Assembly (NCBI GenBank): GCA_017560225.1
Contig: JAFYOJ010000090.1
Coordinates: 1,386-65,385 of the forward strand
Length of the DNA stretch: 64,000 nt
Direction: 5' to 3'
Origin: Clostridia bacterium
GTDB lineage: Bacteria > Bacillota > Clostridia > UBA1212 > UBA1255
Shown here: positions 6,991 to 64,000 of the stretch, piece by piece
Layout: every line of letters begins with the position of its first letter
How positions within the stretch are numbered: position 1 is the stretch's first letter
Translations under genes and position numbers: made by a program
The notes under the pieces: generated by a model
Seen by the model: the letters and a program-made list of their open reading frames with translations, nothing else
What the model was told of the DNA's origin: nothing
Databases searched by the model: none

Positions 6991-7619
6991 CCCCCTTCCC
7001 AATCCTTCTCAAAAACCAACAAAGCGGCATACAAAACCACTTCCATTTCCCCAAAACCTTTACAGTCTTGCACGATTTCCTCCAATACATCCGCCTGTAC
7101 CATCGGGTTGCTCCCCGCCGCATGCATCACTTTCTGCAAACAAGTCCGAATCGCCTTTCCGTGACGTCCCCGGGGACTTTGATATAACAGAAGTTGAATT
7201 TGTTCCAATCCCGTAAACTTATCACTCATCAAGGCCCCTTCTACGTGAAGCAATTCATCCGGCACCTTCCCAAACAGCCACGTATGGACCGGCAAGCTAC
7301 CCAGCGCCATCAACAGCTGACGAAGACAATGCCGTTCTTCTAAAAGATAGGGCATCATAAAAATCAAATTAACAAACATACGTATAACCGGTGCGTATTT
7401 AAAGGTGTTCCAAAGACGTTCTGCCGCTTCCGAAACTGCATCCGAATCGCCTTGTTGCAAAGCCTGTAACCACGGCAGCAAATAATACGCCGCTACCTTC
7501 GGCAGTCCCACGGAGCAACGAGTATATACCTCATTTGCAGAAGAGGCTCCGGCTAAACCATAGCAAAAAATACGGATGGTTTTAGGAATTTGCCGAACAA
7601 ACATAAAATGACGAATCAT
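6981..7619 (-). CDS. hypothetical protein
   Basis: 212-aa ORF with ATG start directly abutting the upstream stop (TAAATG). No recognizable motifs. Confidence 0.5.
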   Translation of the reverse strand: MIRHFMFVRQIPKTIRIFCYGLAGASSANEVYTRCSVGLPKVAAYYLLPWLQALQQGDSDAVSEAAERLWNTFKYAPVIRMFVNLIFMMPYLLEERHCLRQLLMALGSLPVHTWLFGKVPDELLHVEGALMSDKFTGLEQIQLLLYQSPRGRHGKAIRTCLQKVMHAAGSNPMVQADVLEEIVQDCKGFGEMEVVLYAALLVFEKDWEGGCL

Positions 7620-35487: not shown

Positions 35488-37029
35488 TTATTCATAGATT
35501 CTGGTAATCAGACAATCTGCATACGCAGCTTCCGCCCAATTAGTCACAATCATAGACTGCAAACTCTCTCCATAGCACTCTACGGAATAAATTTGCTTCA
35601 CATCACTAAAATCCAATGTTTCAATTTGATTATAACTGCATCGCAAATAGCGAATTTTTGCAAAGAGAGTCACATCCAATTCCGTCAAAGAACAGGATGC
35701 ACAGTCCAATTGTTCCAAGGAAGCAAATGTATCCAATTGAATCGATGTAACACTTTCATTCTCCGCTATGCGAAGAGTAACCAAAGATGGTAATGTTTCT
35801 CCCGTAATCTCCGTTTCCTCAATGGCAGTATCGGAACAATCTAAATATTGCAATTTAGATACTTCACTGTAATCCAACCACCCCAACGGCGTTCCACGAT
35901 AACTCAGCGTAACCAATTCCGGCACTGCGTAAAATGGAATCTCCGTCAACTGTGTTTCTTCTACAATCAAACGCTTCAATCCGGGCACGTTGGTCAAATC
36001 CAACGTTTCCAACGGAGTGGAAGAAATTTCCAATTCCACCAAATCCGTCAGCCCCACCGGCGCAAACTCTGTCAATACCGCATTTCGAATCGTAAGAGAA
36101 GATAATGCGGTAAATTTCTGCAAATCCCGCTCCGGAAGCGTCAACGTACAATCTTCAATGTGCAACGCGGTAATGACCTGCAAATCCCGTCTTAATACCT
36201 GACTATCCTGTGTGTACTGGTCATAACGGCCATCCGTGTTATGCTTTAATAAGAATTCAATAGCAGCTTTGCGAATCCCTTCATTTTGAAGCTCCACCAC
36301 ACTGAGCCCATCCATAATCGCCTCGTATCCGGTGAAAGGAACTTCTTTATTGGACAATCGAGAACCGGTGATCTCCGGCGCCAAAATTTGTCCATATAAA
36401 TATGTATCTTGGCAAGTAACGGTGGCATAGGGCGCCAGTAATGTTCCGGTAAAAATGCAATTGGTTAAATCCACCGAAGTAGCTTCATAACAATTAATCA
36501 GCACCCGGGAAGCATACCGCACAGAATCATCTCGAGAAAGTATGTAATAATCAGACAGATCAATTTCTTCCCCCGCTAAATTAACCACCACATAGAAATA
36601 ATTATGTTCGGAATTCATCCAAATGTGGTCAAAATTTTGAAGGGTGAAATCATTCTCACACAACGCATTGCTATCTGCGTGAAAGATACTAAACTCCGGA
36701 TTTTCTTTCGAGATAAAATATAGGCCGCCCTTCTCCCCCTTGGAAGAAGCATCCTCCGTCAATTCGGTCCAAACCTCTGCCGTAGCGTCCAAAGAGGCAT
36801 AAGCTTCTGAAAGTTCTTTGTAGTTCAAGGCGCCGGAAAGCACATCGGAAGCAGCGTCACCTACAGAGGCGTTTACAACACTGTCCCCGCGCAACAAAAC
36901 GTTCTCGTATAAGTGCACACCGTAAGACAGTACCACCATAACAAACACCAGTACAACCAGTGTTAGAAGCGTCAGTACAGTATCCATCTTATGCTGTTTC
37001 AAAAAAGCAATTATCGGTTTCCGTTTCAT
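35488..37029 (-). CDS. Membrane-anchored leucine-rich-repeat (LRR) protein
   Basis: N-terminal TM (LTLLTLVVLVFVMVVL), then 10 or more LxxLxLxxN/CxxL repeats (LTELDVTLFAKIRYLRCSYNQIETLDFS...). Start set to ATG M15; the track M1 is TTG. Confidence 0.6.
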   Translation of the reverse strand: MKRKPIIAFLKQHKMDTVLTLLTLVVLVFVMVVLSYGVHLYENVLLRGDSVVNASVGDAASDVLSGALNYKELSEAYASLDATAEVWTELTEDASSKGEKGGLYFISKENPEFSIFHADSNALCENDFTLQNFDHIWMNSEHNYFYVVVNLAGEEIDLSDYYILSRDDSVRYASRVLINCYEATSVDLTNCIFTGTLLAPYATVTCQDTYLYGQILAPEITGSRLSNKEVPFTGYEAIMDGLSVVELQNEGIRKAAIEFLLKHNTDGRYDQYTQDSQVLRRDLQVITALHIEDCTLTLPERDLQKFTALSSLTIRNAVLTEFAPVGLTDLVELEISSTPLETLDLTNVPGLKRLIVEETQLTEIPFYAVPELVTLSYRGTPLGWLDYSEVSKLQYLDCSDTAIEETEITGETLPSLVTLRIAENESVTSIQLDTFASLEQLDCASCSLTELDVTLFAKIRYLRCSYNQIETLDFSDVKQIYSVECYGESLQSMIVTNWAEAAYADCLITRIYE

Positions 37030-37048
37030 GTACCTCTCCCAAAATGAT

Positions 37049-37138
37049 CTAACCGTCGTTATGGGCCGCAACCATCAGTGCCATTACAAAAACACCCATA
37101 AATCCGCCAATCAGAAGCCCACAAAAAAATTGTAACAT
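37049..37138 (-). CDS. Putative 29-aa hydrophobic micropeptide (MLQFFCGLLIGGFMGVFVMALMVAAHNDG)
   Basis: ATG preceded by GAGGTG RBS (6-nt spacer) in the cpsB-LRR intergenic region. Single predicted TM helix. Not in the ORF track (below the size cutoff). Confidence 0.3.
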   Translation of the reverse strand: MLQFFCGLLIGGFMGVFVMALMVAAHNDG

Positions 37139-37197
37139 ACAAACACCTCGGCTTACAACAGAAAATTCCTTCCTATTCTGTCCCTTCCGAGGGCGTA

Positions 37198-37920
37198 TTA
37201 TTCAATCTTTAATTCACAACACTGCACCCAAGAAAGACGTTCCGGAAAGTCCTTGCCCATCTTCTTTGTAAGCCACTGCCGAATCTGCGCATAGCCCGAC
37301 ACATCCGTAGGCCCTCTGTCAGAAACACCATGGCAATCACTGCCGAAGAAAACAGGATACCCTTCCTTCATTACTTTCTTTATGAAAGCTTTTGCTTTCC
37401 GATCGTTAAAAGCAGTATGATTAAACTGAAAACAGATTCCGGGAATTTCCAGAATCTTCTTCAAATCCTTCTTGCTGATACGGGACAACACGCGCTCCAC
37501 ATGGGCAATCACCGGACGCACATTATAAATGGCAGTCACGCCGGAAAGTACGGTGTACATCCATTCTCTAAATTCAGACACAGGCAACTCTAAGAGTAAT
37601 AAATCTGTATCTCCAATACACAACAGATCTAAATCTTCCGTAAGAAGCAGATTGCGTTCCACATAAACTTCTGCCCCCAACAAAATACGGGGCATTGTCT
37701 GTCCATTTTGTGCGGCAGCGTCTTGCAATATCCGCGCCGCCTCCGAAATTCTTTGTTTAAAAGCAACAGGCTTTTCGTCTAAAGAAAAATAATGAGGGGT
37801 AGCAATGACAAGATCGACTTGACTTTTCTCCATTTCCCGCAGCATACGAAGCGACGTGTCCACATTTTGGGCACCGTCATCTACGTTTGGTAAAATATGG
37901 GTATGGAAATCAATCCTCAT
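37198..37920 (-). CDS. cpsB: PHP-family Mn-dependent protein-tyrosine phosphatase (CpsB/YwqE type)
   Basis: MRIDFHTHILPNVDDGA ... PHYF ... GSDCH motifs of CpsB/YwqE. Confidence 0.8.
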   Translation of the reverse strand: MRIDFHTHILPNVDDGAQNVDTSLRMLREMEKSQVDLVIATPHYFSLDEKPVAFKQRISEAARILQDAAAQNGQTMPRILLGAEVYVERNLLLTEDLDLLCIGDTDLLLLELPVSEFREWMYTVLSGVTAIYNVRPVIAHVERVLSRISKKDLKKILEIPGICFQFNHTAFNDRKAKAFIKKVMKEGYPVFFGSDCHGVSDRGPTDVSGYAQIRQWLTKKMGKDFPERLSWVQCCELKIE

Positions 37921-38737
37921 CGTCCTCTTCCTTGTTCAGCAAGTCGGCAAAATCTGCAGTGGTCTGCTTCGCAGCAGGCGCAAACTCCATAGTCTTGTCC
38001 CCGCTTCGCTTGTATCCGTAGGATGCGTAACGCGTATATTTCTTGTATTTTCGACTGTAATACTTGCCGTGACCACTGGGAACTTCCGCAATGGTGTAAC
38101 CAAGAAGTGCAACACCGGTTGCAGAGAACGCATCTACCGCACGATGTAAATCATCATACGTAGTATGTCCGTAACGAAGTACAAACATAACGCCTGAAAC
38201 GTACGCAGAAAGTACCGCAGCATCGGTTACCAAATTAACCGGCGGTGTATCCAGGATAATATAATCGTAATACTCATTCATCTTCTCCAAGAAAATCTTC
38301 ATCCGCTCACTGCCCAAAAGTTCAGACGGGTTCGGCGGAATAACACCGGAAGGCATAAAATCCAAATTCGGCAGTACCTCTCTGCAAAGGGCCTCAGAGA
38401 AAGACTCAAATCCAACCAAGAATCTGGAAAGACCGTGATTGTAATTTACCTTAAAGAAGGTATGAAGCGTAGGCTTTCGCATATCCGCATCAATCAACAG
38501 TACTTTACTGCCATTCTGCGCCAGAGCAATAGCTAAATTAGCAGCCGTCGTACTCTTACATTCAGAAGCATTGGCCGAGGCAACAATGACACTCTTGCCA
38601 CCGGTGGGTGCTAACGCGAACACAATATTCGTACGCAACGTATTAAACGCTTCACGGACAGGAAACGCAGTCTTGTCATTCAAGATACGATCTTTGGGCA
38701 TCAATTTATTCTTCTTATTCTTCTTGCCAAACAGCAT
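37910..38737 (-). CDS. cpsD: BY-kinase catalytic subunit (CpsD/YwqD-type tyrosine kinase)
   Basis: Walker A' / A region (VIVASANASECKSTTAANLAIALA), Walker B (LLIDADMRKP), C-terminal Tyr cluster (YYSRKYKKYTRYASYGY). Confidence 0.8.
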   Translation of the reverse strand: MLFGKKNKKNKLMPKDRILNDKTAFPVREAFNTLRTNIVFALAPTGGKSVIVASANASECKSTTAANLAIALAQNGSKVLLIDADMRKPTLHTFFKVNYNHGLSRFLVGFESFSEALCREVLPNLDFMPSGVIPPNPSELLGSERMKIFLEKMNEYYDYIILDTPPVNLVTDAAVLSAYVSGVMFVLRYGHTTYDDLHRAVDAFSATGVALLGYTIAEVPSGHGKYYSRKYKKYTRYASYGYKRSGDKTMEFAPAAKQTTADFADLLNKEEDDED

Positions 38738-39495
38738 TAGCGTCTGCCCCCTTTCCGTTCGGAAATTTGTTCACTGTATTTGTAGTACGTATAACCGCCT
38801 TTAAAGGTATCATTCATATCGGGAATTTCGCCCATGAATCGAAGTTTCGTCGTTTCTGTCACACGTGCAGATTCCCGAACCGTATTATCCATCATATGAA
38901 CGATGATAATAATACCACAACTCAGCACAAGGCCGACCAACACACCCAAAAATGTGTTGGTTTGGATATTGGGCGATGCCGGACTGGACGGAACTCTTGC
39001 AGAATCCAATTTCGCCAAGGTATAGCCCACATACATAGGCGCCACAACATCGGGGGCAATTTCCGTAATTTTATTACAAATCAAATAGGACAATTCCGGG
39101 TCTGTGGTGTTTACGGAAATATATAAAACATCAGAAACATCTTCATTTGTAGAAACGGAAATGCGTACATTGGCAGAAGCCGGAATTTGCACTCCGTCAT
39201 CCCAAAGAGCCTGATACAAATACTCCCGGTAATCATAAGAATCTAATTTCTCCTTATACACCGGAACAATCTTTAAGCGAATAGAAACCTCTCCGGTGCT
39301 TACAGAATCCGATTCCATGTCCATATTACTCATTCCCTGCACATGCATCTTTGCAGAAGAAGTATATGTAGGGGCAATCAGAAAAGCGGAGTACGCATAA
39401 GAAAGCGCACCCACCACAACGGCACTAATCAAAATCCACACAATCTTGTCCAGCAAAAGTCTGGCAATTGTCTTAAGATCTATTGTATCCTTCAA
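38737..39495 (-). CDS. cpsC: BY-kinase transmembrane activator / Wzz-like chain-length determinant (CpsC/YwqC type)
   Basis: Two TM helices flank a periplasmic Wzz-like domain. N-terminus KDTIDLKTIARLLLDKIVWILI fits CpsC. Start set to an in-frame TTG with AAGGAG RBS, since the ORF has no ATG before residue 58. Confidence 0.7.
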   Translation of the reverse strand: MKDTIDLKTIARLLLDKIVWILISAVVVGALSYAYSAFLIAPTYTSSAKMHVQGMSNMDMESDSVSTGEVSIRLKIVPVYKEKLDSYDYREYLYQALWDDGVQIPASANVRISVSTNEDVSDVLYISVNTTDPELSYLICNKITEIAPDVVAPMYVGYTLAKLDSARVPSSPASPNIQTNTFLGVLVGLVLSCGIIIIVHMMDNTVRESARVTETTKLRFMGEIPDMNDTFKGGYTYYKYSEQISERKGGRR

Positions 39496-39566
39496 AACAG
39501 CATTCTCCTTTAGCTTCAATTACAGATATACAAATCACATTATAGCACACATCTTTTTTTTTGTCA

Positions 39567-40298
39567 TCAAGTAAACCATGCCCAAAAACTTTTAATTTCC
39601 TGCTTGGTTTTTTGGAAAAGATCAATCACCTTAAAACGTACGGTCACCCGATTGGTTTCTACCTTTTCCGGAAGGCTTACAGGCGTTTCGGTTGCTTCAG
39701 CTTCAGGCGCAGCCGTATTTTCCGGCACTCGGGCATTCACAAAACATAATTTCGGGAAAAGGACGCACCACCAGTTTCTACCGGCCGCCTCTCCAATTTC
39801 TACGCGGAGAGCCTGATAAACCCCCGCAGGCAAAGACCCACCTTCGTAGTCACGAGTAGGAAAATAGACTTCCTCCAGCCGCACAGACACAGGATAGTCG
39901 TAGCCCTCCTCACCAATACAGACGGCTGCCGCCTGAGAAAGAACCTCCGTATTTTCCGCTATGCGGGCTTTAGCTTCCTCCCGGGTCTTGCAGTCGGACA
40001 GCAATGTTTCCGACGCCGTCAACACACAATCCCGCACTTTTAATTTTAATGCCTGATCTGCAGCAGAATCACTGTTGGCAAGCACGTGAAGACGAAGCAC
40101 CTCTTCAGAAATGCCACGAAATTCCATTTCTGAATAGACGCAAAAACTCCAAACCACCACAAAAATACATGCCGCCACGGTAGCCATTATTTTCTTTCGC
40201 CGTTCTGTTTTTTGTTCTGTACAAGGGAAGGGAATAATTTCCATTTCCATTTTACATCGCCTCCTCATTCCAAGTTTCTCCCATTTTTTTGAATTCAT
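39567..40298 (-). CDS. spoIIR: Stage II sporulation protein R
   Basis: LRLHVLANSDSAADQALKLKVRD core motif of SpoIIR, with an N-terminal signal/TM segment. Confidence 0.8.
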   Translation of the reverse strand: MNSKKWEKLGMRRRCKMEMEIIPFPCTEQKTERRKKIMATVAACIFVVVWSFCVYSEMEFRGISEEVLRLHVLANSDSAADQALKLKVRDCVLTASETLLSDCKTREEAKARIAENTEVLSQAAAVCIGEEGYDYPVSVRLEEVYFPTRDYEGGSLPAGVYQALRVEIGEAAGRNWWCVLFPKLCFVNARVPENTAAPEAEATETPVSLPEKVETNRVTVRFKVIDLFQKTKQEIKSFWAWFT

Positions 40299-54343: not shown

Positions 54344-54823
54344 CTAATGAACTTCTCTGTAAAATTTTACCTTTTTAACCCAAGTTCCCAGCAGGACCAG
54401 CCCCGCCGCCACCGCAAATCCGGCAAAATCCAGCCATACGTCCGCCAAACTACTGCCGCGCCCTGTAAAAAGCTGCAAAGTTTCATCCATGGCACCCACC
54501 AGAAAGCCGAAACAGAAGCAATGCGCCATCCAATGAAGTTCTATTTTCCTGCGCACCCAAAGCAGTAAAAAACATTCCAAACCCAGCGCAAAGAACTCCG
54601 CAAAATGACCCAGTTTTCGAACAAAATATTCGGTGATATTTTCCGCGCCGAACAAGGGTCCCAACAGCGGCTTCACAAGATTCTCCAGTAGCGCTTGACT
54701 CTTCTTAGACGAATCTTGGGGGCCTTCCAAAGAATGCCCCCAAATCACACACAATGTAATGACAATCAAAACGATCAAGATTGCCGTCCAAATATTTTGT
54801 TTCGTCCACTTACAGTGCTGCAT
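54344..54823 (-). CDS. VanZ-like family membrane protein
   Basis: VanZ-like hydrophobic pattern (...FVRKLGHFAEFFALG...). Overlaps the ald 3' end by about 14 nt. Confidence 0.55.
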   Translation of the reverse strand: MQHCKWTKQNIWTAILIVLIVITLCVIWGHSLEGPQDSSKKSQALLENLVKPLLGPLFGAENITEYFVRKLGHFAEFFALGLECFLLLWVRRKIELHWMAHCFCFGFLVGAMDETLQLFTGRGSSLADVWLDFAGFAVAAGLVLLGTWVKKVKFYREVH

Positions 54824-55922
54824 GAAGCTCCGTGTACGCCAAATCCAAGCTGGTGGCCACATTCTTGTTCACGCACTTGCCGCCGTAGATATTCACACCG
54901 TTTGCCAAACCTGCGCACTCGGAAACAGCTGCCTCCAAGCCCATCTCCGCAATCATCAAACCGTAGCGAATGGTTGCGTTGGCAAGCGCCACAGTAGAAG
55001 TATAAGGAACAGCACCGGGCATATTGCCTACACAGTAGTGTACAATGCCTTCTTCAATATAAACAGGATTGTCGTGGGACGTTACGCGAGAAGTCTCGCA
55101 GCAACCGCCCTGGTCGATGGCGATATCTACAATGACAGCGCCTTTCTTCATCAGTTTCAAATGCTCCTTGCGTACCAATTTCGGCGTAGCGGCACCGGGA
55201 ATCAAAACAGAGCCGATTACAAGATCTGCTTCCTTCAAAGACTTGCGAATATTGGCTTCCGTGCTGTACAAAGTGGTAACAGACGCGCCGAAGATATCTT
55301 CCAAATAAGCAAGACGATTGGCATTGACATCCAGCAAAGTTACCTGGGCGTCGCTACCTACCGCTGCCTTTGCCGCATAGGTACCGGCAATACCGCCGCC
55401 GATGATTACAATCTTACCCCGCTCTACACCAGGCACACCGCCAAGCAAAATACCGCGGCCGCCGTAGCTGCGCTCCAAATACTTGGCACCTTCCTGTACA
55501 GAAAGACGACCGGCAATCTGGCTCATGGGACGAAGACAAGGAAGATTGCCCTGCTCATCGGTAATGGTTTCAAAAGCAACGGCCTTTACCTGCTTCTCCA
55601 TCAAAGCCTTGGCCAATTCCGGATTGGCCGCCAAGTGCAAATACGTGTAAAGAATCTGGCCCGGTCTTAAATATTCAACCTCACAAGCCTCCGGTTCCTT
55701 TACCTTAACAATCATATCTGCAATGTCAAAAACTTCTTTCGGCGTAGCCAGAATCTTGGCACCCGCTTCTATATATTCTTCATCGGAAAAGCCTGCGCCT
55801 GCACCTGCACCGGTCTCTACATAGACGGTGTGCCCTTTTGCGGTATATGCAAGGACGTTATCCGGCGTCAAACCTACTCGATATTCGTGATTCTTCAATT
55901 CTTTTGTTGTACCAATAATCAT
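54810..55922 (-). CDS. ald: Alanine dehydrogenase
   Basis: Full-length AlaDH: N-terminal substrate domain, NAD Rossmann motif VIIGGGIAGTYAAKAA, and HYCVGNMPGAVP. Confidence 0.9.
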   Translation of the reverse strand: MIIGTTKELKNHEYRVGLTPDNVLAYTAKGHTVYVETGAGAGAGFSDEEYIEAGAKILATPKEVFDIADMIVKVKEPEACEVEYLRPGQILYTYLHLAANPELAKALMEKQVKAVAFETITDEQGNLPCLRPMSQIAGRLSVQEGAKYLERSYGGRGILLGGVPGVERGKIVIIGGGIAGTYAAKAAVGSDAQVTLLDVNANRLAYLEDIFGASVTTLYSTEANIRKSLKEADLVIGSVLIPGAATPKLVRKEHLKLMKKGAVIVDIAIDQGGCCETSRVTSHDNPVYIEEGIVHYCVGNMPGAVPYTSTVALANATIRYGLMIAEMGLEAAVSECAGLANGVNIYGGKCVNKNVATSLDLAYTELHAAL

Positions 55923-56023: not shown

Positions 56024-57187
56024 TTACAAACCCAACTCGTCTAATAACGCTTGCATCTCATCTGCTTTTTCCCGGGAAACATTATGATTGTACAACAATT
56101 CTCTCATAGACCTTTTGGCATGACCACAAAACACTAATTTAAACCACCGTCGAACCTGCATAACCGGTGTGAGCCACTTGTGTTTTTGAAGAATTGGATA
56201 ATGCCGCTTAATTAAATCATACGGAATCACAATTTTTGAAAAAGCGTATTGCAAACGCCCACCTAACTTTTGTTGGCGGAGAACAATTCTATTTTGCAGC
56301 GTTCCGTAAACACCTCCGGAAAGAATAAAGTATTCCATCTTTTTCGTGCAGGCATTACCGGGCTGATTATCAAACCACATTTCGCCAAGAAGTGTTGCAT
56401 TTCTGGCAAATTTACCCACCCCACCTTTTTCAAGGAGTTCCTCATACTTATCTAAATCCTTTTCAGGAAGATGATTCAATATCCACAAATCTAATACCGA
56501 GCGAATACCACAACCGCCGTTTCGAAAATGCTTCGACATATGAACAACATGATAAAAATAGAACAAATCAGCCGGCATTTCCATTTGATATAACCATCCC
56601 GGACGAGCAGTTGCCACATCCCAAAGATTATCAAAAATCCCTGCTATTTTTCCGGTATAATCATCTTCTATAAGGAGAAAGTGCAATTCAATGTGATAGC
56701 CGTTTTGTGAATACAGAGCCACGTCGTGTAAACATCGTGAGCGTTCAACAAATTGCAACTCACCAACTAAAATGGAAACAGCATTTTCCAAATCTTCAAC
56801 TTTCACTAATATGTCAAGATCGCTACAAGTTCGCATCCACGGTTCCGGATAATAGTTTTGCATCACAGCACCTTTTAACGGAATAAATGAAATTTTTGCC
56901 TTTTCAAAGGCATTACAAATACGCACCCGTTCATACTGTTGATTTTCATGTCGATATATGGCCCGAAAAATATACTTTTGCAGCCGAGATTTGCTTTCAT
57001 CATTTACCAAACCATTTTTTATTGCGCCTAACGCTACCAAGTGTGCCAGATCGTGTTTTTCTGCCAAGCGAATAATGTTTGAAAGCAAGTTTTCAGATGC
57101 AATTTGCTTGCTTTCGCTATTCATCGGTTTATTTTGAATAACTGATTGAAGAATTGAAAAAAATATATCTCGCTCTTTCTCGTTCAT
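56024..57187 (-). CDS. Uncharacterized nucleotidyltransferase (NTP_transf_5-like)
   Basis: About 390 aa with the DLDILV nucleotidyltransferase Asp motif, a family common in polysaccharide loci. Start at ATG M24 (AAAGGAAG RBS). First gene of the AT-rich island. Confidence 0.55.
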   Translation of the reverse strand: MNEKERDIFFSILQSVIQNKPMNSESKQIASENLLSNIIRLAEKHDLAHLVALGAIKNGLVNDESKSRLQKYIFRAIYRHENQQYERVRICNAFEKAKISFIPLKGAVMQNYYPEPWMRTCSDLDILVKVEDLENAVSILVGELQFVERSRCLHDVALYSQNGYHIELHFLLIEDDYTGKIAGIFDNLWDVATARPGWLYQMEMPADLFYFYHVVHMSKHFRNGGCGIRSVLDLWILNHLPEKDLDKYEELLEKGGVGKFARNATLLGEMWFDNQPGNACTKKMEYFILSGGVYGTLQNRIVLRQQKLGGRLQYAFSKIVIPYDLIKRHYPILQKHKWLTPVMQVRRWFKLVFCGHAKRSMRELLYNHNVSREKADEMQALLDELGL

Positions 57188-57240: not shown

Positions 57241-58347
57241 CTACTGTTCCAAACAACGCATAAAGTTTTCTTTATTTTCTTTGGCAGTTGTAGTAGGTCT
57301 TCCCAAATCAGCTCTAGCGCCAATAGCACATTTAATTTCTATCAACGTAAGATTATTTTTGTTTTTTGCTTGCCAAAGCGCTTTATCCAGTTCGTCAAAA
57401 TTATCTACAGAAACAACGTTAGAATAGCCGCAACCTTTTGCAATAGCACAAATATCAATTTTGGATGCCACCGTAGGCATTCCGCCAACCGTTTCATGGG
57501 CGCCGTTGTTGATAACAATGTGTACTATGTTTTCAGGAGCCATTGATCCTAATAGAGCAACTGAACCCATATGCATTAACAACGCTCCGTCACCATCAAT
57601 ACACCAAATCTTTTTTTGGGGATTTTGCAATGCAATGGATAGCGCAATAGAGGAACTATGTCCCATAGAACCCACGGTAAGAAAATCATACTGATGGCCT
57701 TGACCATTGATCTCCCGAATTTCAAACAATTCTCGCGATGCTTTTCCCGTGGTAGATATAACAGGATCTGTATCCGACACGGCAACAATGTGTCGAATAA
57801 TCTCCTCACGAAGCATTTTATTGTCATTATTATACGAAACTTTCAAATCACATTCTAATGCGCCTTTCTTAACAACAAAAGCAACCTGTTTCCCCGATTC
57901 CAATAAAGGCTTCCATTGTTCAAGTTGCATAACAACTTCACTTTCGGTTGTTTCCTTACTGATAACAAAAGTACGAATATCCATATCTTCCAAAAGTTTT
58001 ATCGTAACTTCTCCCTGATAAATGTGTTGCGGTTCATCATGAACACCCGGTTCACCTCTCCAGCCAACAAAAAAGATACAAGGAATCCCGTACACTTTAT
58101 CATTCATAAGGGAAGCAACGGGATTAATAATATTGCCAATACCGCTATTTTGCATATAAACCACCGGAATCTTTCCTGTAGACAAATAATAACCTGCCGC
58201 AAGCGCTACGCAATTTCCTTCATTGGCTGCAATAATATGTTGTTTGCCAATACCGTAAGTAGCCATCAAATAGTTGCATAACGGTTTCAGTTGAGAATCC
58301 GGCACGCCTGTAAAAAAATCATAATTCTTTAAAAAATCTAATTTCAT
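57241..58347 (-). CDS. ppd: Phosphonopyruvate decarboxylase (TPP-dependent)
   Basis: Fused alpha/beta TPP-enzyme of about 370 aa with ThDP motif CIDGDGALLMHMGS...N. Sits immediately downstream of a PEP mutase gene. Confidence 0.8.
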   Translation of the reverse strand: MKLDFLKNYDFFTGVPDSQLKPLCNYLMATYGIGKQHIIAANEGNCVALAAGYYLSTGKIPVVYMQNSGIGNIINPVASLMNDKVYGIPCIFFVGWRGEPGVHDEPQHIYQGEVTIKLLEDMDIRTFVISKETTESEVVMQLEQWKPLLESGKQVAFVVKKGALECDLKVSYNNDNKMLREEIIRHIVAVSDTDPVISTTGKASRELFEIREINGQGHQYDFLTVGSMGHSSSIALSIALQNPQKKIWCIDGDGALLMHMGSVALLGSMAPENIVHIVINNGAHETVGGMPTVASKIDICAIAKGCGYSNVVSVDNFDELDKALWQAKNKNNLTLIEIKCAIGARADLGRPTTTAKENKENFMRCLEQ

Positions 58348-58348
58348 T

Positions 58349-59464
58349 TCATTTCACGTCCAATTTTAAAATTAATATATATAAATCATATAAATTTTGT
58401 GTTTCAAGTTTAACAGGATTATTATTCAATCGTGTAAGGTTAACAGATGCAGACAAAACAGGTAAGTCATCCACATGTGCTTTGCACGGAGCTTCCAAAC
58501 CTATTTCGTTGAGTAAATCCGAAAATTTGCAAACCGCCTCATCCACATTTTCACACCCTAATGACTTAGCAATCGCTTCAAAGGTGCTTGCCAAATAAGA
58601 TTTTCCTCTGCGGTCGATACACAAATCCAGATTTTGATGCATATACGCCCATATATAAGGCAAACAAATTGCAACTGCATGACCATGCGGAAGCCCATAC
58701 AGTGACGTGATTTTATAGCTCATAGCATGCGCTGATGTCGTTTGTGTAATATTAATCGCCTGTCCTGCATAGTTGGCGGCCAAAAATATTTCGGTTGTTG
58801 CATGGTCATCGTTTTTAAAAAGATAGGCCTTGTAATTCTTCATAATTGTTTCAACGGCTTTTTGGGAAAGCTTTTTACTTGTTTCCGTAGAATTAACCGA
58901 CCACCATGACTCAATCCCCTGACAAAGAGCATCCATTAACGTACACGTTTTTTGGTAAAATGGAAGTGTTTTTAACACACTAGGCTCAAGAATAGCATAC
59001 TCCGGTATCAAACTTTGGTGGGTAACAGACTGCTTTTCACCGTTATAATAAATAACTGCATATCTTGTTGATTCGCTTCCTGTACCCGCTGTTGTAGGAA
59101 TTGCAATCAGTGGAATCCCTGTATCTTTATATTCCTGTTGCAAAAAGTTGGTTGTTTCATCCATTTTGCAATACAGCTTGATGCATTTCGCAACGTCAAT
59201 ACTACTTCCGCCACCAACCGCCAAAAGCGTATCACATCCTTCAGCATTGAACAAATGCACCCCTTTTGCTACATCTGCATATTGAGGATTCGGTGTAAAG
59301 TCATCAAAAAAAACAATTGGAATTTGAATGTTGTCAATTTGTTCTTTAATGGGTAAGAACTGATAAGAACAGCTGCAAACAATCATAACCTTTCTTGCCC
59401 GCACCGTATTCAAAATATGTTTAAGTTGTTGTATACTCCCGTTTCCTGCAATAACTTTTTGCAT
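58349..59464 (-). CDS. Iron-containing (group III) alcohol dehydrogenase; predicted phosphonoacetaldehyde reductase
   Basis: GGGSSIDVAKCI NAD/Fe-ADH motif and His-rich metal site (HAMSY...HGHAVA). AAGGAG RBS. Function inferred from its position between pepM and ppd. Confidence 0.65.
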   Translation of the reverse strand: MQKVIAGNGSIQQLKHILNTVRARKVMIVCSCSYQFLPIKEQIDNIQIPIVFFDDFTPNPQYADVAKGVHLFNAEGCDTLLAVGGGSSIDVAKCIKLYCKMDETTNFLQQEYKDTGIPLIAIPTTAGTGSESTRYAVIYYNGEKQSVTHQSLIPEYAILEPSVLKTLPFYQKTCTLMDALCQGIESWWSVNSTETSKKLSQKAVETIMKNYKAYLFKNDDHATTEIFLAANYAGQAINITQTTSAHAMSYKITSLYGLPHGHAVAICLPYIWAYMHQNLDLCIDRRGKSYLASTFEAIAKSLGCENVDEAVCKFSDLLNEIGLEAPCKAHVDDLPVLSASVNLTRLNNNPVKLETQNLYDLYILILKLDVK

Positions 59465-59477
59465 AGCGGTACGCTCC

Positions 59478-61487
59478 TTATTCCTCAGGAATTAACGTAA
59501 TAATTTCTTTAATCGACATACACAAATCATCCGCTTCTTTTGCTCTATGGTTGGTTAAAATGATTTTAGCCACATTCTGCATGGCGGGGAATCCGCTCCT
59601 GGTAAGCTGATTTGCATAAATTACAACATTAACACCCCGTTGTTTCCATTCATCTTCCGTCACCGTATTAAATGATGTGGGCACAACTACAATAGGTGTA
59701 TGTGCGTCCTGTTGCCTAAATCTTTCTACAAACGTAAAGATTTCCGTAGGGTCTTTCTTTCGGCTATGAATCATAATGGCATCTGCACCAGCTTTTACAA
59801 ACGCAAAAGCACGTTCAAGTGCATCCTCCATTCCTCGTTCAAGAATCAAACTCTCAATACGGGCACATATCATAAATTCTTTCGTTTTTTGCGCCTTTTT
59901 TCCTGCCTGAATCTTTGCACAGAAATTTTCAATACTATCCTGTGTCTGTTCAACCTCCGTACCAAACAGGGAGTTCTTCTTCAAGCCCGTTTTGTCCTCA
60001 ATAATAACCATAGATACACCCATTCGTTCTAAGGTTTTAACTGTATAAACAAAATGTTCGGTCAATCCGCCTGTATCTCCATCAAAAATAATAGGTTTTG
60101 TGGTAACTTCCATAATATCGTCAATTGTGCGGAATCGAGAAGTCATATCCACAAGCTCAATATCCGGTTTGCCTTTGGCTGTACTATCGCAAAGAGAAGA
60201 AACCCACATAGCATCAAATTGATACGTTTTACCATCTTGAAGCACAGTTGTTTTCTCCGCAATAAGACCGGTAAGACCGCTATGGGCCTCAATTGCAGTA
60301 ACCGTTTTTTTCATATTGATCAATTTTTTCAATCTGCCACGGCGTACATCCGGCATGGCTAATTGTGCACGACTCAATTTGTCCAAATCAGCATATTTAG
60401 CATCTTTGGAATAAGGGTATTCTACAAGTGTTCCACCATATTCTGCAAGAACTTTGGTGACCTCATCTCGAATTGGTTTTTGAAAGCCTTCTTTCCAATC
60501 ATCACCGTGAACAACGTAGGTGGGTTTCATAGTTTTAAGATTTTCCGCATAGCTCAGTTGTTTCTGTTCAATAACCTGATATACACCATTAATGTTTTCA
60601 ATCAAAGATTTTCTTTCCTCGTATGGAAGCAACGGAAAGCGCTTGTAACTGGATACCGCTTCATCAGACAACACACCAATGGTCAACCGTCCAAGTTTCG
60701 CTGCTTTCTTAATAATTGCAATATGACCGCTGTGGATCATATCCGTGGAAAAGCACATATAAACTGTGCGATTTTCCACTTCCGCCAATTTAGTCTTCAC
60801 AACAGCTAAATCTTCCGGGGTATCAATCTCCGTACACAACCGATTGCCAACGTCATACGCCATAATCTCACATTGATCAGAAATCTCGTTAAACGCAACT
60901 TCTGCATAGCATTTTCGGTTATTAGATTCACAGTACTCGCAAATCTTATCTAACCAAACATTCCAATCCTGACTATTTAACTTGTACAATGCCTGCGCTT
61001 CCATAGCGTCGTTAAAAAATTCAACACCGATTTTTTCAACACGGCCATCGTGAACAACTGCCTTAAAATCTTTCTCCGGCAAAGCACAAGTAGAGCTGAC
61101 CTTCATGCAGCTTTTTTCAAAAGCCAACAGTTCATCAAGAACAGATGCTTCAAAAACCAAATCGCCATGCATCAACACAATATCTTCATTCCGAAGATAT
61201 TCTTTTGCACAGTAAATAGAATAAATATAATTTGTCTGGTCGTAAATCGGATTATTCACAAATGTATACTGTAGTTTCAGATTTAACGAATGACAGTAAT
61301 TTACAAGGATTTCATTATAATAGCCTGTTGTCATAACAACGTCGGTAACGCCGGCATCCGCAAGCAATTTAAGCTGGCGGCTTAATATTGTCTCTTTGGC
61401 AGATATTTCCGTCATACATTTTGGATGTTCAGAAGTAAGCACACCCATACGATGACCTAAACCGGAATTTAAAATCAGCGCCTTCAT
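59478..61487 (-). CDS. pepM: Tri-domain fusion: LicC/MobA-like nucleotidyltransferase + HxGH cytidylyltransferase (TagD/CCT-like) + phosphoenolpyruvate mutase
   Basis: Residues 1-230: MKALILNSGLGHRMG (NTP_transferase G-x-G-x-R). Residues about 240-370: CFSTDMIHSGHIAIIKKA (HxGH cytidylyltransferase). Residues about 380-669: PEP mutase motifs FDGDTGG, IIEDKTGLKKNSL, GADAIMIHSRKKDP. Confidence 0.85.
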   Translation of the reverse strand: MKALILNSGLGHRMGVLTSEHPKCMTEISAKETILSRQLKLLADAGVTDVVMTTGYYNEILVNYCHSLNLKLQYTFVNNPIYDQTNYIYSIYCAKEYLRNEDIVLMHGDLVFEASVLDELLAFEKSCMKVSSTCALPEKDFKAVVHDGRVEKIGVEFFNDAMEAQALYKLNSQDWNVWLDKICEYCESNNRKCYAEVAFNEISDQCEIMAYDVGNRLCTEIDTPEDLAVVKTKLAEVENRTVYMCFSTDMIHSGHIAIIKKAAKLGRLTIGVLSDEAVSSYKRFPLLPYEERKSLIENINGVYQVIEQKQLSYAENLKTMKPTYVVHGDDWKEGFQKPIRDEVTKVLAEYGGTLVEYPYSKDAKYADLDKLSRAQLAMPDVRRGRLKKLINMKKTVTAIEAHSGLTGLIAEKTTVLQDGKTYQFDAMWVSSLCDSTAKGKPDIELVDMTSRFRTIDDIMEVTTKPIIFDGDTGGLTEHFVYTVKTLERMGVSMVIIEDKTGLKKNSLFGTEVEQTQDSIENFCAKIQAGKKAQKTKEFMICARIESLILERGMEDALERAFAFVKAGADAIMIHSRKKDPTEIFTFVERFRQQDAHTPIVVVPTSFNTVTEDEWKQRGVNVVIYANQLTRSGFPAMQNVAKIILTNHRAKEADDLCMSIKEIITLIPEE

Positions 61488-61489
61488 AA

Positions 61490-62248
61490 TTATACATTTC
61501 CTTTCTTTTCATTTGATTGATCTTTACGAATATAATTGTTTTTCCTCGGGGTCATATAATCTCCATAGAGCGACGTAAGAAACATATCATATTCTGCTAT
61601 ACATTGATATTGTTGGTCTTCAAAAGGAAGTTCAACCGTTTTCTGCATCATAGTTTTAGGATAAGCATCATAATACGGAGGTGCAAACACTGTTACGTAT
61701 TCAGAATCACTCCAACCATATTGTGTCGAATATGTACGATATACTTTGTTCGTATATGTATCCGGAACAAATATTGCAAACATCTTTGTAAAAAATAACA
61801 ATATCGGTTTCTTAGTAGCGTGAAAAGGTTTGTATTTAGCAGAGAAGAATTGATATAATCTGCGAGTCTTTTTCAAAAAGCGTATACGTTCTTGTGCATC
61901 ATTCGGTGCGCCAATTAAACCATAGATATCAATATGACAATCATAGTGTGACTGACCTTCAAGAATCAAGCGTTCATGACACGAGCCAAAACCTTTTTCA
62001 ACACCGGGAACGCAAAGATGATAATGACTCTTTTTGTCACAACGAATGGCATTTCGTAATTTCAGCAAATCGTCGTGCCGCACAAAAATATCGACATCTA
62101 AGTCCCAAGGGATAAAGCCTTTTTCTCGTACCGCACCCAAAAGAGTTCCATACGCAAGAGAATACCAAATATCGTTCTCTTTGCATACGCGGTGTAGATA
62201 ATTCAGCATTTGTAACAAGTCATCTTTTTGATCATTTTGGGCTATCAT
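61490..62248 (-). CDS. licD: LicD-family phospho-head-group transferase
   Basis: YSLAYGTLLGAVREKGFIPWDLDVDIFV is the LicD family signature. Start at ATG M26 (AAAAGAGGA RBS). Confidence 0.8.
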   Translation of the reverse strand: MIAQNDQKDDLLQMLNYLHRVCKENDIWYSLAYGTLLGAVREKGFIPWDLDVDIFVRHDDLLKLRNAIRCDKKSHYHLCVPGVEKGFGSCHERLILEGQSHYDCHIDIYGLIGAPNDAQERIRFLKKTRRLYQFFSAKYKPFHATKKPILLFFTKMFAIFVPDTYTNKVYRTYSTQYGWSDSEYVTVFAPPYYDAYPKTMMQKTVELPFEDQQYQCIAEYDMFLTSLYGDYMTPRKNNYIRKDQSNEKKGNV

Positions 62249-62268: not shown

Positions 62269-63396
62269 TTACTGTAGCAAATCCCGAAACAACGCGTCTA
62301 ACTTTGCTACAACCTCGCCCCAACCATATTGTTGGGCTATAATTTCAGATTTTTTACTATACGCGTCCCACAAAGTATTGTCATCTGCAATTTTTGTCAT
62401 AGCATTGCAGACACTTTGGCTATCAGAAGGCGGAAAAATAATTCCGGAATCCTGTACAACACTGGCAATATTTCCAACATCCGAAGAAAGTACGGGCGTT
62501 GCAGTTGCCATTGCTTCAATAATAACTTTTGGAAATCCCTCTGTGACAGATGTCAGAACAAAAGCACGCGATTGATTCAACTCGTTTGCAATGACTGATC
62601 TATTTTGTATGCCGCAAAACTCAACTGCATGGGAAATTCCAAATTGCTCGCACATCGCACAAAGTTCTTCTCTTCGTTCTCCATCACCAATCATTTTTAA
62701 TGTATAATCTTGATGCTGCTCATAGAACTTTGCAAAGCCTTCCAATAAGATATGTTGAGCTTTTTGCCACCGCAAACTGGCCACGTGAATAAATTGTTTT
62801 TTTCTCGGCAGTTTATTATTTTGAAACACGGTGAGATCCACTCCATTTCCAACACAAACAACCGGTTTTGAATAGGAACGACCTAGTGGCAGCAAATCAA
62901 TCATATTTTCTCCGACTGTAACAACTGCGTCCGGAATCCTTAGTATATACTTTCCAATGAGCGGTTTTTTTTTCATGCGCAATGCATCGGAACCATGTAA
63001 ACTCATTACAATTTTGGTACCGTATTTTTTTCTTGCATAGATACCACATTTAATTGTCATGGGCGAAACCACGTGAATAACATCCGGCTTAAAAGCATCA
63101 ATCAGGGGATGCACACTTTTCGCAAATTGATTATACGCATTATTTTTCCGAATAAACTTTAGAACTCGCGCAAAAATATTCTCGTCATATTTGCCCAGCG
63201 GCACATTATCGAGTTCCACTTCAACAACTTCGACGCCTTCTCGATTTTGAAACATCGTACCATCTCGTTTACCGGTTACAATCATTTCATCATAGTCAGA
63301 AAACATCGAATAATAGTACGCATGCAGACCCGCTCCCGGTAGTGTATCCCGCGGGTACGTAGCACTAACGCGCATCACTTTCAATTTCTTTTCCAT
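62269..63396 (-). CDS. Glycosyltransferase family 4
   Basis: GT-B fold with the E-x7-E region EGFPKVIIEAMA. Start at ATG M3 (GAGGT RBS). Confidence 0.8.
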   Translation of the reverse strand: MEKKLKVMRVSATYPRDTLPGAGLHAYYYSMFSDYDEMIVTGKRDGTMFQNREGVEVVEVELDNVPLGKYDENIFARVLKFIRKNNAYNQFAKSVHPLIDAFKPDVIHVVSPMTIKCGIYARKKYGTKIVMSLHGSDALRMKKKPLIGKYILRIPDAVVTVGENMIDLLPLGRSYSKPVVCVGNGVDLTVFQNNKLPRKKQFIHVASLRWQKAQHILLEGFAKFYEQHQDYTLKMIGDGERREELCAMCEQFGISHAVEFCGIQNRSVIANELNQSRAFVLTSVTEGFPKVIIEAMATATPVLSSDVGNIASVVQDSGIIFPPSDSQSVCNAMTKIADDNTLWDAYSKKSEIIAQQYGWGEVVAKLDALFRDLLQ

Positions 63397-63423: not shown

Positions 63424-64000
63424 TTATCTATCCAATAAATCCATAAACATCTCTGTAATATAGATGTACCACTTTTGGTCCGGTGTTAAATCTTTTCCGT
63501 ATCCCAGATTAAACTCGGGACGTGTTGCACCTTGGTAGTCTCGCATCCATTGTTCCAATGCACGTGGGAGCGGAAGTTTTTTAGGCTGCCCCCATCCAGG
63601 ATATAATTTACTAAACACTTCACGGACTAAATATTTATTTTCTCCGCTTCTAATTCTATCTAAATCCAACGGTATATCTAATTTGGTAGTAAGATAAGGA
63701 GCCACGAAGTCAACACCAGCCAAAGAACACGAATTGATATAAGAATTGGGCGATTGACGAAGATGAATATCATTCAGAAAACCATATACATCCATACGAC
63801 CGTCTTTATAATGTCGCTCATACGGTTCTCGAATGATCACGCCATTTTTCAATGCTTTCGTGGGGTCAACAAAATTATGATATTCTATATATTCATCCAA
63901 CTGAAACTCTCTGCAAAGTTGAATACTGTGTCCACCGTAAATAATATCTGCGGTCTCTCCAAAAATCAGTTTTTCATATCCAGCTTTCCGTGCAATTAAT
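63424..64000 (-). CDS. Asparagine-synthetase-like amidotransferase, C-terminal part (ORF open to window end)
   Basis: Reading frame continues upstream of the track Met to position 64000 with no stop. IFGETADIIYGG resembles the AsnB LSGEGADELFGGY region. Confidence 0.5.
   Translation of the reverse strand, partial: LIARKAGYEKLIFGETADIIYGGHSIQLCREFQLDEYIEYHNFVDPTKALKNGVIIREPYERHYKDGRMDVYGFLNDIHLRQSPNSYINSCSLAGVDFVAPYLTTKLDIPLDLDRIRSGENKYLVREVFSKLYPGWGQPKKLPLPRALEQWMRDYQGATRPEFNLGYGKDLTPDQKWYIYITEMFMDLLDR

Follow-up and report, generated by a model that had tools for sequence, protein, structure and literature searches.

A FomC-type alcohol dehydrogenase between pepM and ppd and a predicted 2-hydroxyethylphosphonate cassette in a polysaccharide locus of a Clostridia bacterium

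A gene for a group III iron-dependent alcohol dehydrogenase (Fe-ADH) lies between the phosphoenolpyruvate (PEP) mutase gene pepM and the phosphonopyruvate decarboxylase gene ppd on the minus strand of a 64,000-nucleotide stretch of a Clostridia bacterium genome (contig JAFYOJ010000090.1; this whole stretch is called the window below), and the original prediction was that the enzyme would steer phosphonoacetaldehyde (PnAA) to 2-hydroxyethylphosphonate (HEP) rather than to 2-aminoethylphosphonate (AEP). Read 5' to 3' on the minus strand, the genes of the locus encode an Asn_synthase-family protein, a GT4 glycosyltransferase, LicD, a triple fusion that ends in the PEP mutase (Ppm), the Fe-ADH, the decarboxylase (Ppd) and an NTP_transf_5 protein. 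The Fe-ADH open reading frame (ORF) is intact, starting with ATG and encoding 371 amino acids (aa), and both of its junctions were read directly from the sequence: pepM passes into the ADH gene as TAA-GGAGCGTACCGCT-ATG, a gap of 13 nucleotides (nt) within which there is a GGAG ribosome-binding site, and the ADH gene passes into ppd as TGA-A-ATG, a gap of 1 nt; between licD and pepM there are 2 nt. The junctions are thus tight and none of those on the minus strand has a terminator-like site (the sole match on this strand, at 59779–59804, is inside the pepM coding sequence), and therefore the earlier observation of a Fe-ADH set between pepM and ppd with tiny gaps is correct as written. From 56 kb to the window end the GC content is low, ~0.38–0.40 versus 0.43–0.50 elsewhere in the window.

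By Pfam, the protein encoded has the Fe-ADH (PF00465, E 1e-40) and ADH_Fe_C (PF25137, E 1.4e-25) domains, with GGGS at aa 84–87 and a metal site made of D178, Q182, H246 and H260, these four residues being invariant in 122 relatives; Gln at the second metal-ligand position is common to the window ADH, FomC of the fosfomycin pathway and the Zn-dependent SarD. The window ADH stays below the cut-off of every curated NCBIfam model, its best match being TIGR03405 (165.2 bits; cut-off 423.7), followed by ErcA (158) and FucO (151). TIGR03405 represents Phn_Fe-ADH/PsrA, the degradative PhpC subfamily, of which the window ADH is not a member by this cut-off, and a true member taken as a control, a Variovorax ADH encoded between phnA and phnY, reaches 526.5 bits. 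The score was discarded as evidence, since FucO, PduQ and other generic ADHs reach 166–189 bits on the same model, i.e., as high or higher, so that the match is uninformative. In the PDB, too, the sequences closest to the window ADH are those of generic enzymes (TM0920, methanol dehydrogenase and the sulfoacetaldehyde reductase SarD, all at ~1e-33).

FomC was obtained by scanning the Fom1 cytidylyltransferase (CyTase) sequence, taken from the PDB 5x3d alignment, against species-representative genomes, the top genome being that of Streptomyces wedmorensis NRRL 3426 (L022) at 100% identity. Its fosfomycin cluster was recognized by Pfam as Fom3 (B12 radical-SAM), Fom4 (HTH-cupin), FomD (DUF402), FomA (AA-kinase), Fom1, Fom2 and FomC (Fe-ADH), the ORF at the expected FomB position giving no Pfam match. 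With this FomC the window ADH aligns by BLASTP over its full length (31% identity, E 5e-58), and a C-terminal VNxxRLxNNPV motif is common to both. A neighbour-joining (NJ) tree of 90 Fe-ADHs splits 66 taxa from the other 24 with a bootstrap of 84/100: on the larger side are the window family, FomC, the Glycomyces and Stackebrandtia ADHs and other high-scoring ADHs linked to ppm (the Ppm gene), and on the smaller one are ten comparison Fe-ADHs (FucO, PduQ, SarD, methanol dehydrogenase, TM0920, four unassigned plasmid ADHs and the Variovorax TIGR03405 member), 13 TIGR03405-like ppm-linked ADHs and that of L080. On a hidden Markov model (HMM) of the FomC clade, from which the window's family and the four relatives nearest to it had been left out, the window ADH reaches 366 bits, versus 205 on a TIGR03405-like HMM and 202 on a generic one, with generic ADHs scoring 200–243 bits on the FomC-clade HMM. 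The clade signature is found in the window ADH as T242, T243, Y250, H262, N342, R345, N348 and N349, and the protein equals FomC at 17 of the 19 positions inspected; where the two have Q182, T242, T243, Y250, H262 and R345, FucO and PduQ have H, L, G, H, V/R and C. Y250, K144, R345 and T242, invariant in 122 family members, map to Tyr264, Lys157, Arg349 and Thr256 of the Paraburkholderia fungorum PhpC, residues predicted to lie around HEP in an AlphaFold3 model of this assayed enzyme (PMC13576164).

These comparisons support the placement of the window ADH in the FomC clade, away from the lactaldehyde, propanol, methanol and sulfoacetaldehyde reductases, and the enzyme is a predicted phosphonoacetaldehyde reductase (EC 1.1.1.309), which would convert PnAA and NAD(P)H to HEP; the exact protein, along with its Segatella copri and Fulvitalea homologues, has already been named “phosphonoacetaldehyde reductase” by NCBI. 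For characterized enzymes of this activity, FomC, PhpC and DhpG, the kcat/KM values quoted range from 1,200 to 41,000 per M per s (PMC13576164). The phylogeny that had been proposed as a check, run here versus one characterized reductase (FomC), thereby favours a phosphonoacetaldehyde reductase by tree, HMM and signature alike, and, of the groupings that were to count against it, the one with lactaldehyde dehydrogenases was not seen, the protein standing apart from FucO and PduQ (NJ bootstrap 84). A second clade of ppm-linked Fe-ADHs (loci listed in Table 1) groups with the TIGR03405 member at an NJ bootstrap of 83, and not with FomC; two such clades seem to point to at least two separate recruitments of phosphonoacetaldehyde reductases.

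That the island is devoid of an aminotransferase, as had been claimed, was borne out both by the Pfam tables, which list no aminotransferase of any class from 8.4 kb of the window to 5.5 kb past its end and none in the seven ORFs of at least 250 aa at 1–11 kb of the window, and by a six-frame phmmer search of the window and its extension, in which no AEP transaminase was found at E <= 1e-3. The view past the window end (extension L001) is that offered by a 77.7-kb ENA contig, which contains the window with the exact ADH protein and stops ~6.8 kb past this end, and for which the gene tables reach 5.5 kb; an AEP transaminase just beyond the window, the other finding that was to speak against HEP, was looked for there and none was present within those 5.5 kb. 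The phmmer seed, annotated by PGAP as an AEP transaminase on a plasmid of Rhizobium rhizogenes (474.5 bits on NF010006; cut-off 296), does pick up relatives from other phyla; in metagenomic loci it found two divergent class-V enzymes and, as a fragment of 83 aa, a true AEP transaminase. A loose regular expression for the pyridoxal phosphate-lysine motif of AEP transaminases had given spurious matches only, and phmmer was used instead.

Table 1. Features of the phosphonate operon and its surroundings, with the basis of each assignment.
Feature	Position	Strand	Basis
FomC-type group III (Fe/Zn) ADH, predicted phosphonoacetaldehyde reductase	58349..59464	-	Pfam, BLASTP, NJ clade, HMM, signature
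669-aa fusion of LicC/PntC-like CyTase, Fom1-like CyTase and PEP mutase	59478..61487	-	Pfam, TIGR02320, PDB matches
Fusion N-terminal domain, LicC/PntC-like NTP transferase, aa 1–235	60783..61487	-	phmmer, motifs
Fusion middle domain, HxGH-type cytidylyltransferase, aa 239–361	60405..60773	-	5x3d alignment
Fusion PEP mutase domain, aa 384–669	59481..60338	-	TIGR02320, EDKTGLKKNS motif
Phosphonopyruvate decarboxylase, Ppd/AepY/Fom2 type	57241..58347	-	TIGR03297
LicD-family phosphotransferase, 252 aa by the contig's gene call	61490..62248	-	PF04991, E 5e-26
GT4 glycosyltransferase, same polysaccharide locus	62269..63396	-	PF00534, PF13692
Asn_synthase-family gene (344 aa), 3' part; continues past the window end	63424..64000	-	gene call
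NTP_transf_5 protein, closes the low-GC stretch	56024..57187	-	PF14907, E 1e-38
Second-clade ADH loci	L043, L044, L047, L059, L060, L067, L069, L071, L072, L081, L084, L089, L091		

The partners of the ADH gene are of the kinds found in the fosfomycin pathway. Ppd reaches 474.5 bits on TIGR03297 (cut-off 312.5) and is 41% identical to Fom2, and the fusion, in which Pfam finds PF12804/PF00483 (NTP_transf_3), PF01467 (CTP_transf_like) and PF13714 (PEP_mutase), reaches 404.7 bits on TIGR02320 (cut-off 319.6) and matches 5x3d, 1m1b and 1jyk in the PDB; triple fusions of this kind are on record for 42 proteins, or 2.8% of Ppm (PMC6697681). Its PEP mutase domain has the Ppm signature, EDKTGLKKNS, at aa 497 (motif EDKxxxxxNS as defined in PMC6697681), and with a PF01467 HxGH domain N-terminal to such a Ppm the layout is that of Fom1. 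This middle domain, having HSGH at aa 252, finds its closest solved relative in the Fom1 CyTase domain (5x3d; E 3.6e-42, 146 bits, gap-free over 121 residues; 53.8% identity over 119 locally aligned residues), which makes cytidylyl-HEP (CMP-HEP; PMC6697681), the next PDB matches being far weaker (ECT at 7e-11, TagD at 2e-7). The N-terminal domain (PF12804, 40.1 bits; cut-off 27) is matched by phmmer to the Streptococcus pneumoniae LicC (1jyk, E 1.7e-9) and to Tde1415 PntC (6pd1, E 3e-5), the PntC family having been shown to prefer AEP (PMC6697681), and its motifs are intact, the GxGxR loop (SGLGHRMG) and PK (EHPKCM) as seen versus LicC 1jyk, and GD and EIDTPEDL as seen in an alignment to 4jd0. 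CMP-HEP formation by the fusion, which the original prediction ascribed to “the” fused cytidylyltransferase, is therefore plausible with a middle domain 54% identical to that of Fom1; what has to be amended is that there are two different CyTase domains and not one.

How consistently such a fusion is accompanied by an ADH was followed in two sets of relatives. The first comprises 80 genomic loci (L022–L101) from the genomes with CyTase domains closest to that of Fom1, 67 of them with enough downstream DNA, and Ppd and a Fe-ADH come directly after the fusion in 66 of these 67, with an AEP transaminase found by six-frame phmmer in none of the 80. The only fully flanked locus of this set without a Fe-ADH match, L085 from a Spirochaetia metagenome-assembled genome (OY764342.2), likewise gave no AEP transaminase. 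LicD is encoded in 13 of the 80 loci and a TagF-like protein in 21, never together, and Fom3-like genes are present in 7, a distribution from which CMP-HEP cassettes would mostly serve glycopolymer decoration, with fosfomycin being a special case; the mutual exclusivity of LicD and TagF-like genes suggests two alternative uses of CMP-HEP, possibly decoration versus polymerization.

The second set consists of the 80 closest (79–87% identity) of at least 567 metagenomic relatives of the window's CyTase-Ppm region, 76 of which are informative. All 80 have the triple fusion, 39 have LicD, and an ADH is present in 75 of the 76, an AEP transaminase being found in the remaining one; the prevailing gene order is ppm-ppd-ADH (62 loci), the ppm-ADH-ppd order of the window recurring in 12. 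LicD and a TagF-like gene co-occur once in this set. The remaining locus, L131 (JAEIGA010128031.1, 496–3902), has the triple fusion, then Ppd and then the start of an AEP transaminase replacing the ADH (91 bits for the initial 73 of the 355 positions of TIGR03301), although its CyTase-Ppm part is 81% identical to that of the window, and it looks like a natural ADH-for-transaminase swap on the same activation platform, whereby the branch enzyme, and not the cytidylyltransferase, would set the head group. In two ADH-containing loci (L132:4214–5311 and L161:319–1392), a divergent class-V aminotransferase is encoded 1–2 genes upstream of the fusion, with 132–137 bits on TIGR03301, far under the cut-off of 361; both head groups might be made there. 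More distant homologues, at ~55–60% identity, from Eubacteriales, Bacteroidales and S. copri have the same ppm-ppd-ADH core without a transaminase. In the few contigs whose names state a habitat, it is a fermentation metagenome or a human gut metagenome, and the related Bacteroidales genomes were sampled from the rumen and the buffalo reticulum.

As for the acceptor, the 5.5 kb past the window end encode the rest of the Asn_synthase-family protein, a Wzx flippase, a 137-aa CTP_transf_like protein, a second LicD, a Wzy polymerase and a further GT4, and because of these Wzx, Wzy, LicD and GT4 genes, the operon is regarded as the 3' end of a Wzx/Wzy polysaccharide locus. The second LicD (288 aa), Wzy and the free-standing, TagD-like 137-aa protein (L001:912–3422) are located 1.5–4 kb past the window end, and they suggest that the same polysaccharide also receives another decoration activated with CDP, such as glycerol phosphate. 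The host is an anaerobic spore-forming member of the Clostridia (SpoIIR, YpeB and Germane are encoded elsewhere in the window, and NCBI has it as “Clostridia bacterium”), and the genes most likely form a CMP-HEP cassette within a Wzx/Wzy-type polysaccharide locus.

On the reading that we consider likely, the operon makes HEP rather than AEP, activates it with CTP and attaches it to a surface glycan. The substrate of each enzyme, the CyTase domain that acts on HEP and the acceptor are what we infer here: the PEP mutase domain would turn PEP into phosphonopyruvate and Ppd would turn phosphonopyruvate into PnAA, drawing the unfavourable mutase equilibrium forward by this decarboxylation; the FomC-type ADH would reduce PnAA to HEP; a CyTase domain of the fusion, probably the Fom1-like one and possibly the LicC/PntC-like one, would form CMP-HEP from HEP and CTP; and LicD would take the HEP-phosphonyl group of CMP-HEP and place it on a hydroxyl of a sugar in the repeat unit that the neighbouring glycosyltransferases assemble. 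HEP rather than AEP as the product, the core of the original prediction, is thus supported at the level of sequence by an ADH of the FomC clade and no transaminase nearby. The HEP branch of phosphonate biosynthesis is already recognized, and the window is a further example of it, the same module being annotated in S. copri DSM 18205.

Several points weigh against this reading, at different steps of it. For the ADH, the best TIGR03405 match (165 bits) is not specific, with generic ADHs at 166–189 bits; pairwise identity to FomC (29–33%) is hardly above that to generic Fe-ADHs (25–30%), and the grouping with FomC rests on the profile scores, the signature and a moderately supported distance tree, which is an NJ and not a maximum likelihood one and has FomC as its sole characterized phosphonoacetaldehyde reductase, without PhpC, DhpG and AglG; moreover, Y250, K144 and T242 are also present in some non-phosphonate Fe-ADHs, e.g., TM0920. 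For the activation, cytidylyltransferases do not prove HEP, as the CyTase-Ppm part of L131 is paired with an AEP transaminase, and the polysaccharide B (PSB) of Bacteroides fragilis carries AEP, yet its locus also uses a PF01467-Ppm fusion (PMC8942020). The transaminase search covers 64 kb plus 5.5 kb of the genome. For the acceptor, relatives of LicD can also act on glycolipids, and among the NCBIfam models the LicD in question comes closest to the Mycoplasma Mf1 diacylglycerol cholinephosphotransferase, its 89 bits falling short of the cut-off of 225.

Among the alternatives, one accepts that HEP is made and CMP-activated but not that it ends up as a simple terminal decoration: its free hydroxyl might serve to extend or bridge chains, with a teichoic-acid-like polymer of phosphonate esters or a unit of HEP and glycerol as the outcome, or HEP might be tailored further, be it before or after transfer. 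TagF-like CDP-glycerol glycerophosphotransferases do replace LicD beside the same core in S. copri and in the 21 Fom1-like loci mentioned, where the two were never seen together, a second LicD and a TagD-like cytidylyltransferase are encoded just past the window end, and partial hydrolysis of the HEP-bearing actinomycete glycans has reportedly yielded a HEP mono(2,3-dihydroxypropyl) ester; the window itself, however, has LicD and no TagF-like polymerase, the island has no methyltransferase, radical-SAM enzyme or oxygenase for tailoring, and the oxygen-dependent HEPD, MpnS and HppE are not to be expected in an anaerobic spore-former, for which reasons we regard this alternative as unlikely.

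Quite unlikely, too, is a head group that is still AEP, with a transaminase encoded elsewhere in the genome and the ADH providing a side or buffering activity. It would be in line with the genuine AEP transaminase fragment of L131, with the class-V aminotransferases upstream of the fusion in the ADH-containing L132 and L161, with an N-terminal domain from a family that prefers AEP (PMC6697681) and with a view of the genome limited to 64 kb plus 5.5 kb; against it, the 69 kb around the operon encode no aminotransferase of any class, the ADH gene shows translational packing with pepM on one side and ppd on the other, the branch-point position is taken by an ADH in nearly all of the informative closest relatives (75/76), and no transaminase turned up in the 80 Fom1-like loci.

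Under another alternative, CMP-HEP is made but LicD passes HEP to a glycolipid or a lipoteichoic-acid-type anchor instead of the Wzx/Wzy polysaccharide, to which the Mf1 match of LicD, albeit at 89 bits versus a cut-off of 225, and the fact that phosphonolipids are a known class (PMC8942020) would lend themselves; as a GT4 gene adjoins licD, Wzx, Wzy, the second LicD and more GT4 are encoded just past the window end and the related loci are capsule or O-antigen-like, we deem a lipid acceptor very unlikely. Finally, a generic group III ADH acting on some other aldehyde or alcohol (e.g., a sugar- or glycerol-derived substrate of the polysaccharide pathway), with PnAA used otherwise, is hardly credible: although no curated NCBIfam cut-off is reached, TIGR03405, ErcA and FucO scores are alike and pairwise identities to generic ADHs are close to that with FomC, the profile, tree and signature all put the ADH with FomC, its family essentially always adjoins ppm and ppd, and the island has no other PnAA-consuming enzyme of the AEP transaminase, PhnY or RhiG type.

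On the far side of ppd, the NTP_transf_5 gene starts 53 nt after it, but its membership in the module is doubtful, a homologue being found in 2 of the 80 closest metagenomic loci; the product is without an NCBIfam match, and PF14907 itself is described as an “uncharacterised nucleotidyltransferase”. After the low-GC stretch come the genes for alanine dehydrogenase and VanZ, followed by rpsO and pnp. The alanine dehydrogenase (54810–55922) was considered as an amine-forming partner and rejected: it is a bona fide enzyme of this kind (TIGR00518, 488 bits), is encoded outside the low-GC island and is followed by the housekeeping rpsO and pnp, and is therefore treated as the product of a flanking gene. 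Other surface-related genes are found farther off in the window. Those for Wzz, a CpsD-like tyrosine kinase (CbiA/AAA_31) and a CpsB phosphatase are at ~37000–39600 on the minus strand, ~17 kb from the polysaccharide locus, and are followed by genes for an LRR/pAdhesive_15 surface protein and a sortase; at 4621–7002, also on the minus strand, there is a gene for a surface protein of 793 aa, a putative covalent adhesin that combines a thioester domain (TED) with a prealbumin-fold domain of the SpaA type.

The original prediction also had it that glycan decoration by HEP would be unusual, which stands insofar as such decoration is uncommon but is overstated given the HEP branch in 8.5% of ppm neighbourhoods, the phosphonoglycans of two actinomycetes and marine organic matter. 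The figure for ppm neighbourhoods refers to PhpC/HEP as the predicted branch (Li and Horsman, PMC8942020), and of the ten HEP-branch cluster families only two yielded products, one of these being the Stackebrandtia exopolysaccharide, from which HEP has been purified (PMC8942020). HEP in the phosphonoglycans of two actinomycetes goes back to Yu et al. 2014, as cited in PMC13576164, and HEP is a major phosphonate of marine high-molecular-weight organic matter (PMC8931226). In the literature searched, there was no paper with a HEP glycan or CMP-HEP from a gut or rumen bacterium, and nothing relevant was found on CMP-HEP outside fosfomycin work or on Prevotella copri phosphonates; community production as a source of HEP in fibre-degrading habitats is speculation only in Piazza et al. 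2026 (PMC13576164).

What the branch enzyme decides is the nature of the surface head group, a zwitterionic amine in the case of AEP versus an anionic, hydroxyl-bearing phosphonate in the case of HEP, and with it surface charge, immunogenicity and recognition by phages or the host; this would change with the branch enzyme. A wider possibility, which we put forward tentatively and hold to be rather doubtful, is that HEP, and not AEP, is the routine phosphonate on the surface glycans of many rumen and gut anaerobes, the clade spanning Clostridia/Eubacteriales and Bacteroidales including S. copri, and that the triple fusion is an activation platform indifferent to the head group, uniting an AEP-type (PntC-like) and a HEP-type (Fom1-like) CyTase in one protein; the decoration would then be switched by exchanging the ADH for a transaminase, as L131 suggests. 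If true, gut and rumen glycans could be the source of HEP for the recently described dedicated HEP catabolic pathways of fibre-degrading habitats, and as the module is also present in S. copri DSM 18205, a species of the human gut that can be cultivated, confirmation there would give a concrete producer for the HEP that such pathways consume. For annotation, the rule would be that a FomC-clade ADH (Q182, T242, T243, Y250, H262 and R345) beside ppm-ppd predicts HEP, whereas a TIGR03405 score does not.

Of the known systems, Fom1-Fom2-FomC of S. wedmorensis matches the chemistry predicted for the window up to CMP-HEP and, like it, combines a CyTase-Ppm fusion with Ppd and an ADH of group III, the CyTase+Ppm part being 52.5%, Ppd 41% and the ADH 31–33% identical. 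The two differ in that the fusion of the window has an extra LicC/PntC-like domain, the gene order is ppm-ADH-ppd rather than ppm-ppd-ADH, and Fom3 (the B12 radical-SAM methyltransferase), FomD, Fom4 and FomA/B, present in the fosfomycin cluster, are missing from the window, which instead of these has LicD, glycosyltransferases and Wzx/Wzy in an anaerobic Firmicute.

The Glycomyces and Stackebrandtia phosphonoglycans, as cited in PMC8942020 and PMC13576164, are the only case of HEP chemically shown on a bacterial exopolysaccharide, and species of the same genera (L026, L027, L029) carry a CyTase-Ppm, a Ppd and an ADH from the FomC side of the tree (clade A), like the window, with Glycomyces paridis additionally encoding a TagF-like protein and a TPR protein in which a short stretch matches LicD. 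These are, however, actinomycetes with a double fusion and an ADH ~30% identical to that of the window, where the fusion is triple.

A further known system is the capsule locus of Segatella (Prevotella) copri DSM 18205, a Wzx/Wzy locus with aepX-aepY-“phosphonoacetaldehyde reductase” and no transaminase, whose aepX product (L005:8850–10859) is, like the window fusion, 669 aa long and 78.5% identical to it without a single indel, the Ppm domain reaching 89%. Recent transfer from Bacteroidota, considered because of this Ppm domain, was rejected: the genes are ~66% identical at the DNA level, and the likeness of the proteins is therefore attributed to purifying selection. The constraint is uneven across the phyla, the adjoining Ppd (51%) and ADH (55%) being far less alike than the fusion, and S. 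copri further differs in belonging to Bacteroidota, in its ppm-ppd-ADH order and in having a TagF-like transferase, not LicD.

The Pnt pathway (Atopobium rimae Ari1348, Treponema denticola Tde1415 PntC and LicD; PMC6697681) and the PSB locus of B. fragilis follow the same logic of Ppm, Ppd, CMP activation and a LicD-type transfer, and the N-terminal domain of the window fusion is of the LicC/PntC fold family, if weakly similar to Tde-PntC (E 3e-5); the branch enzyme of the Pnt pathway is, however, a class-V AEP transaminase, where the window has its ADH. Lastly, the degradative PhpC/PsrA (TIGR03405; HEP dehydrogenase of P. fungorum, PMC13576164) shares with the window ADH the Pfam family and, as predicted, the reversible reaction, and the Tyr, Lys, Arg and Thr predicted to contact HEP in the P. 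fungorum enzyme are conserved in the window ADH, yet it forms a separate clade with His and not Gln as the second metal ligand, and its context is catabolic (phnX or phnY-phnA), whereas that of the window ADH is ppm-ppd.

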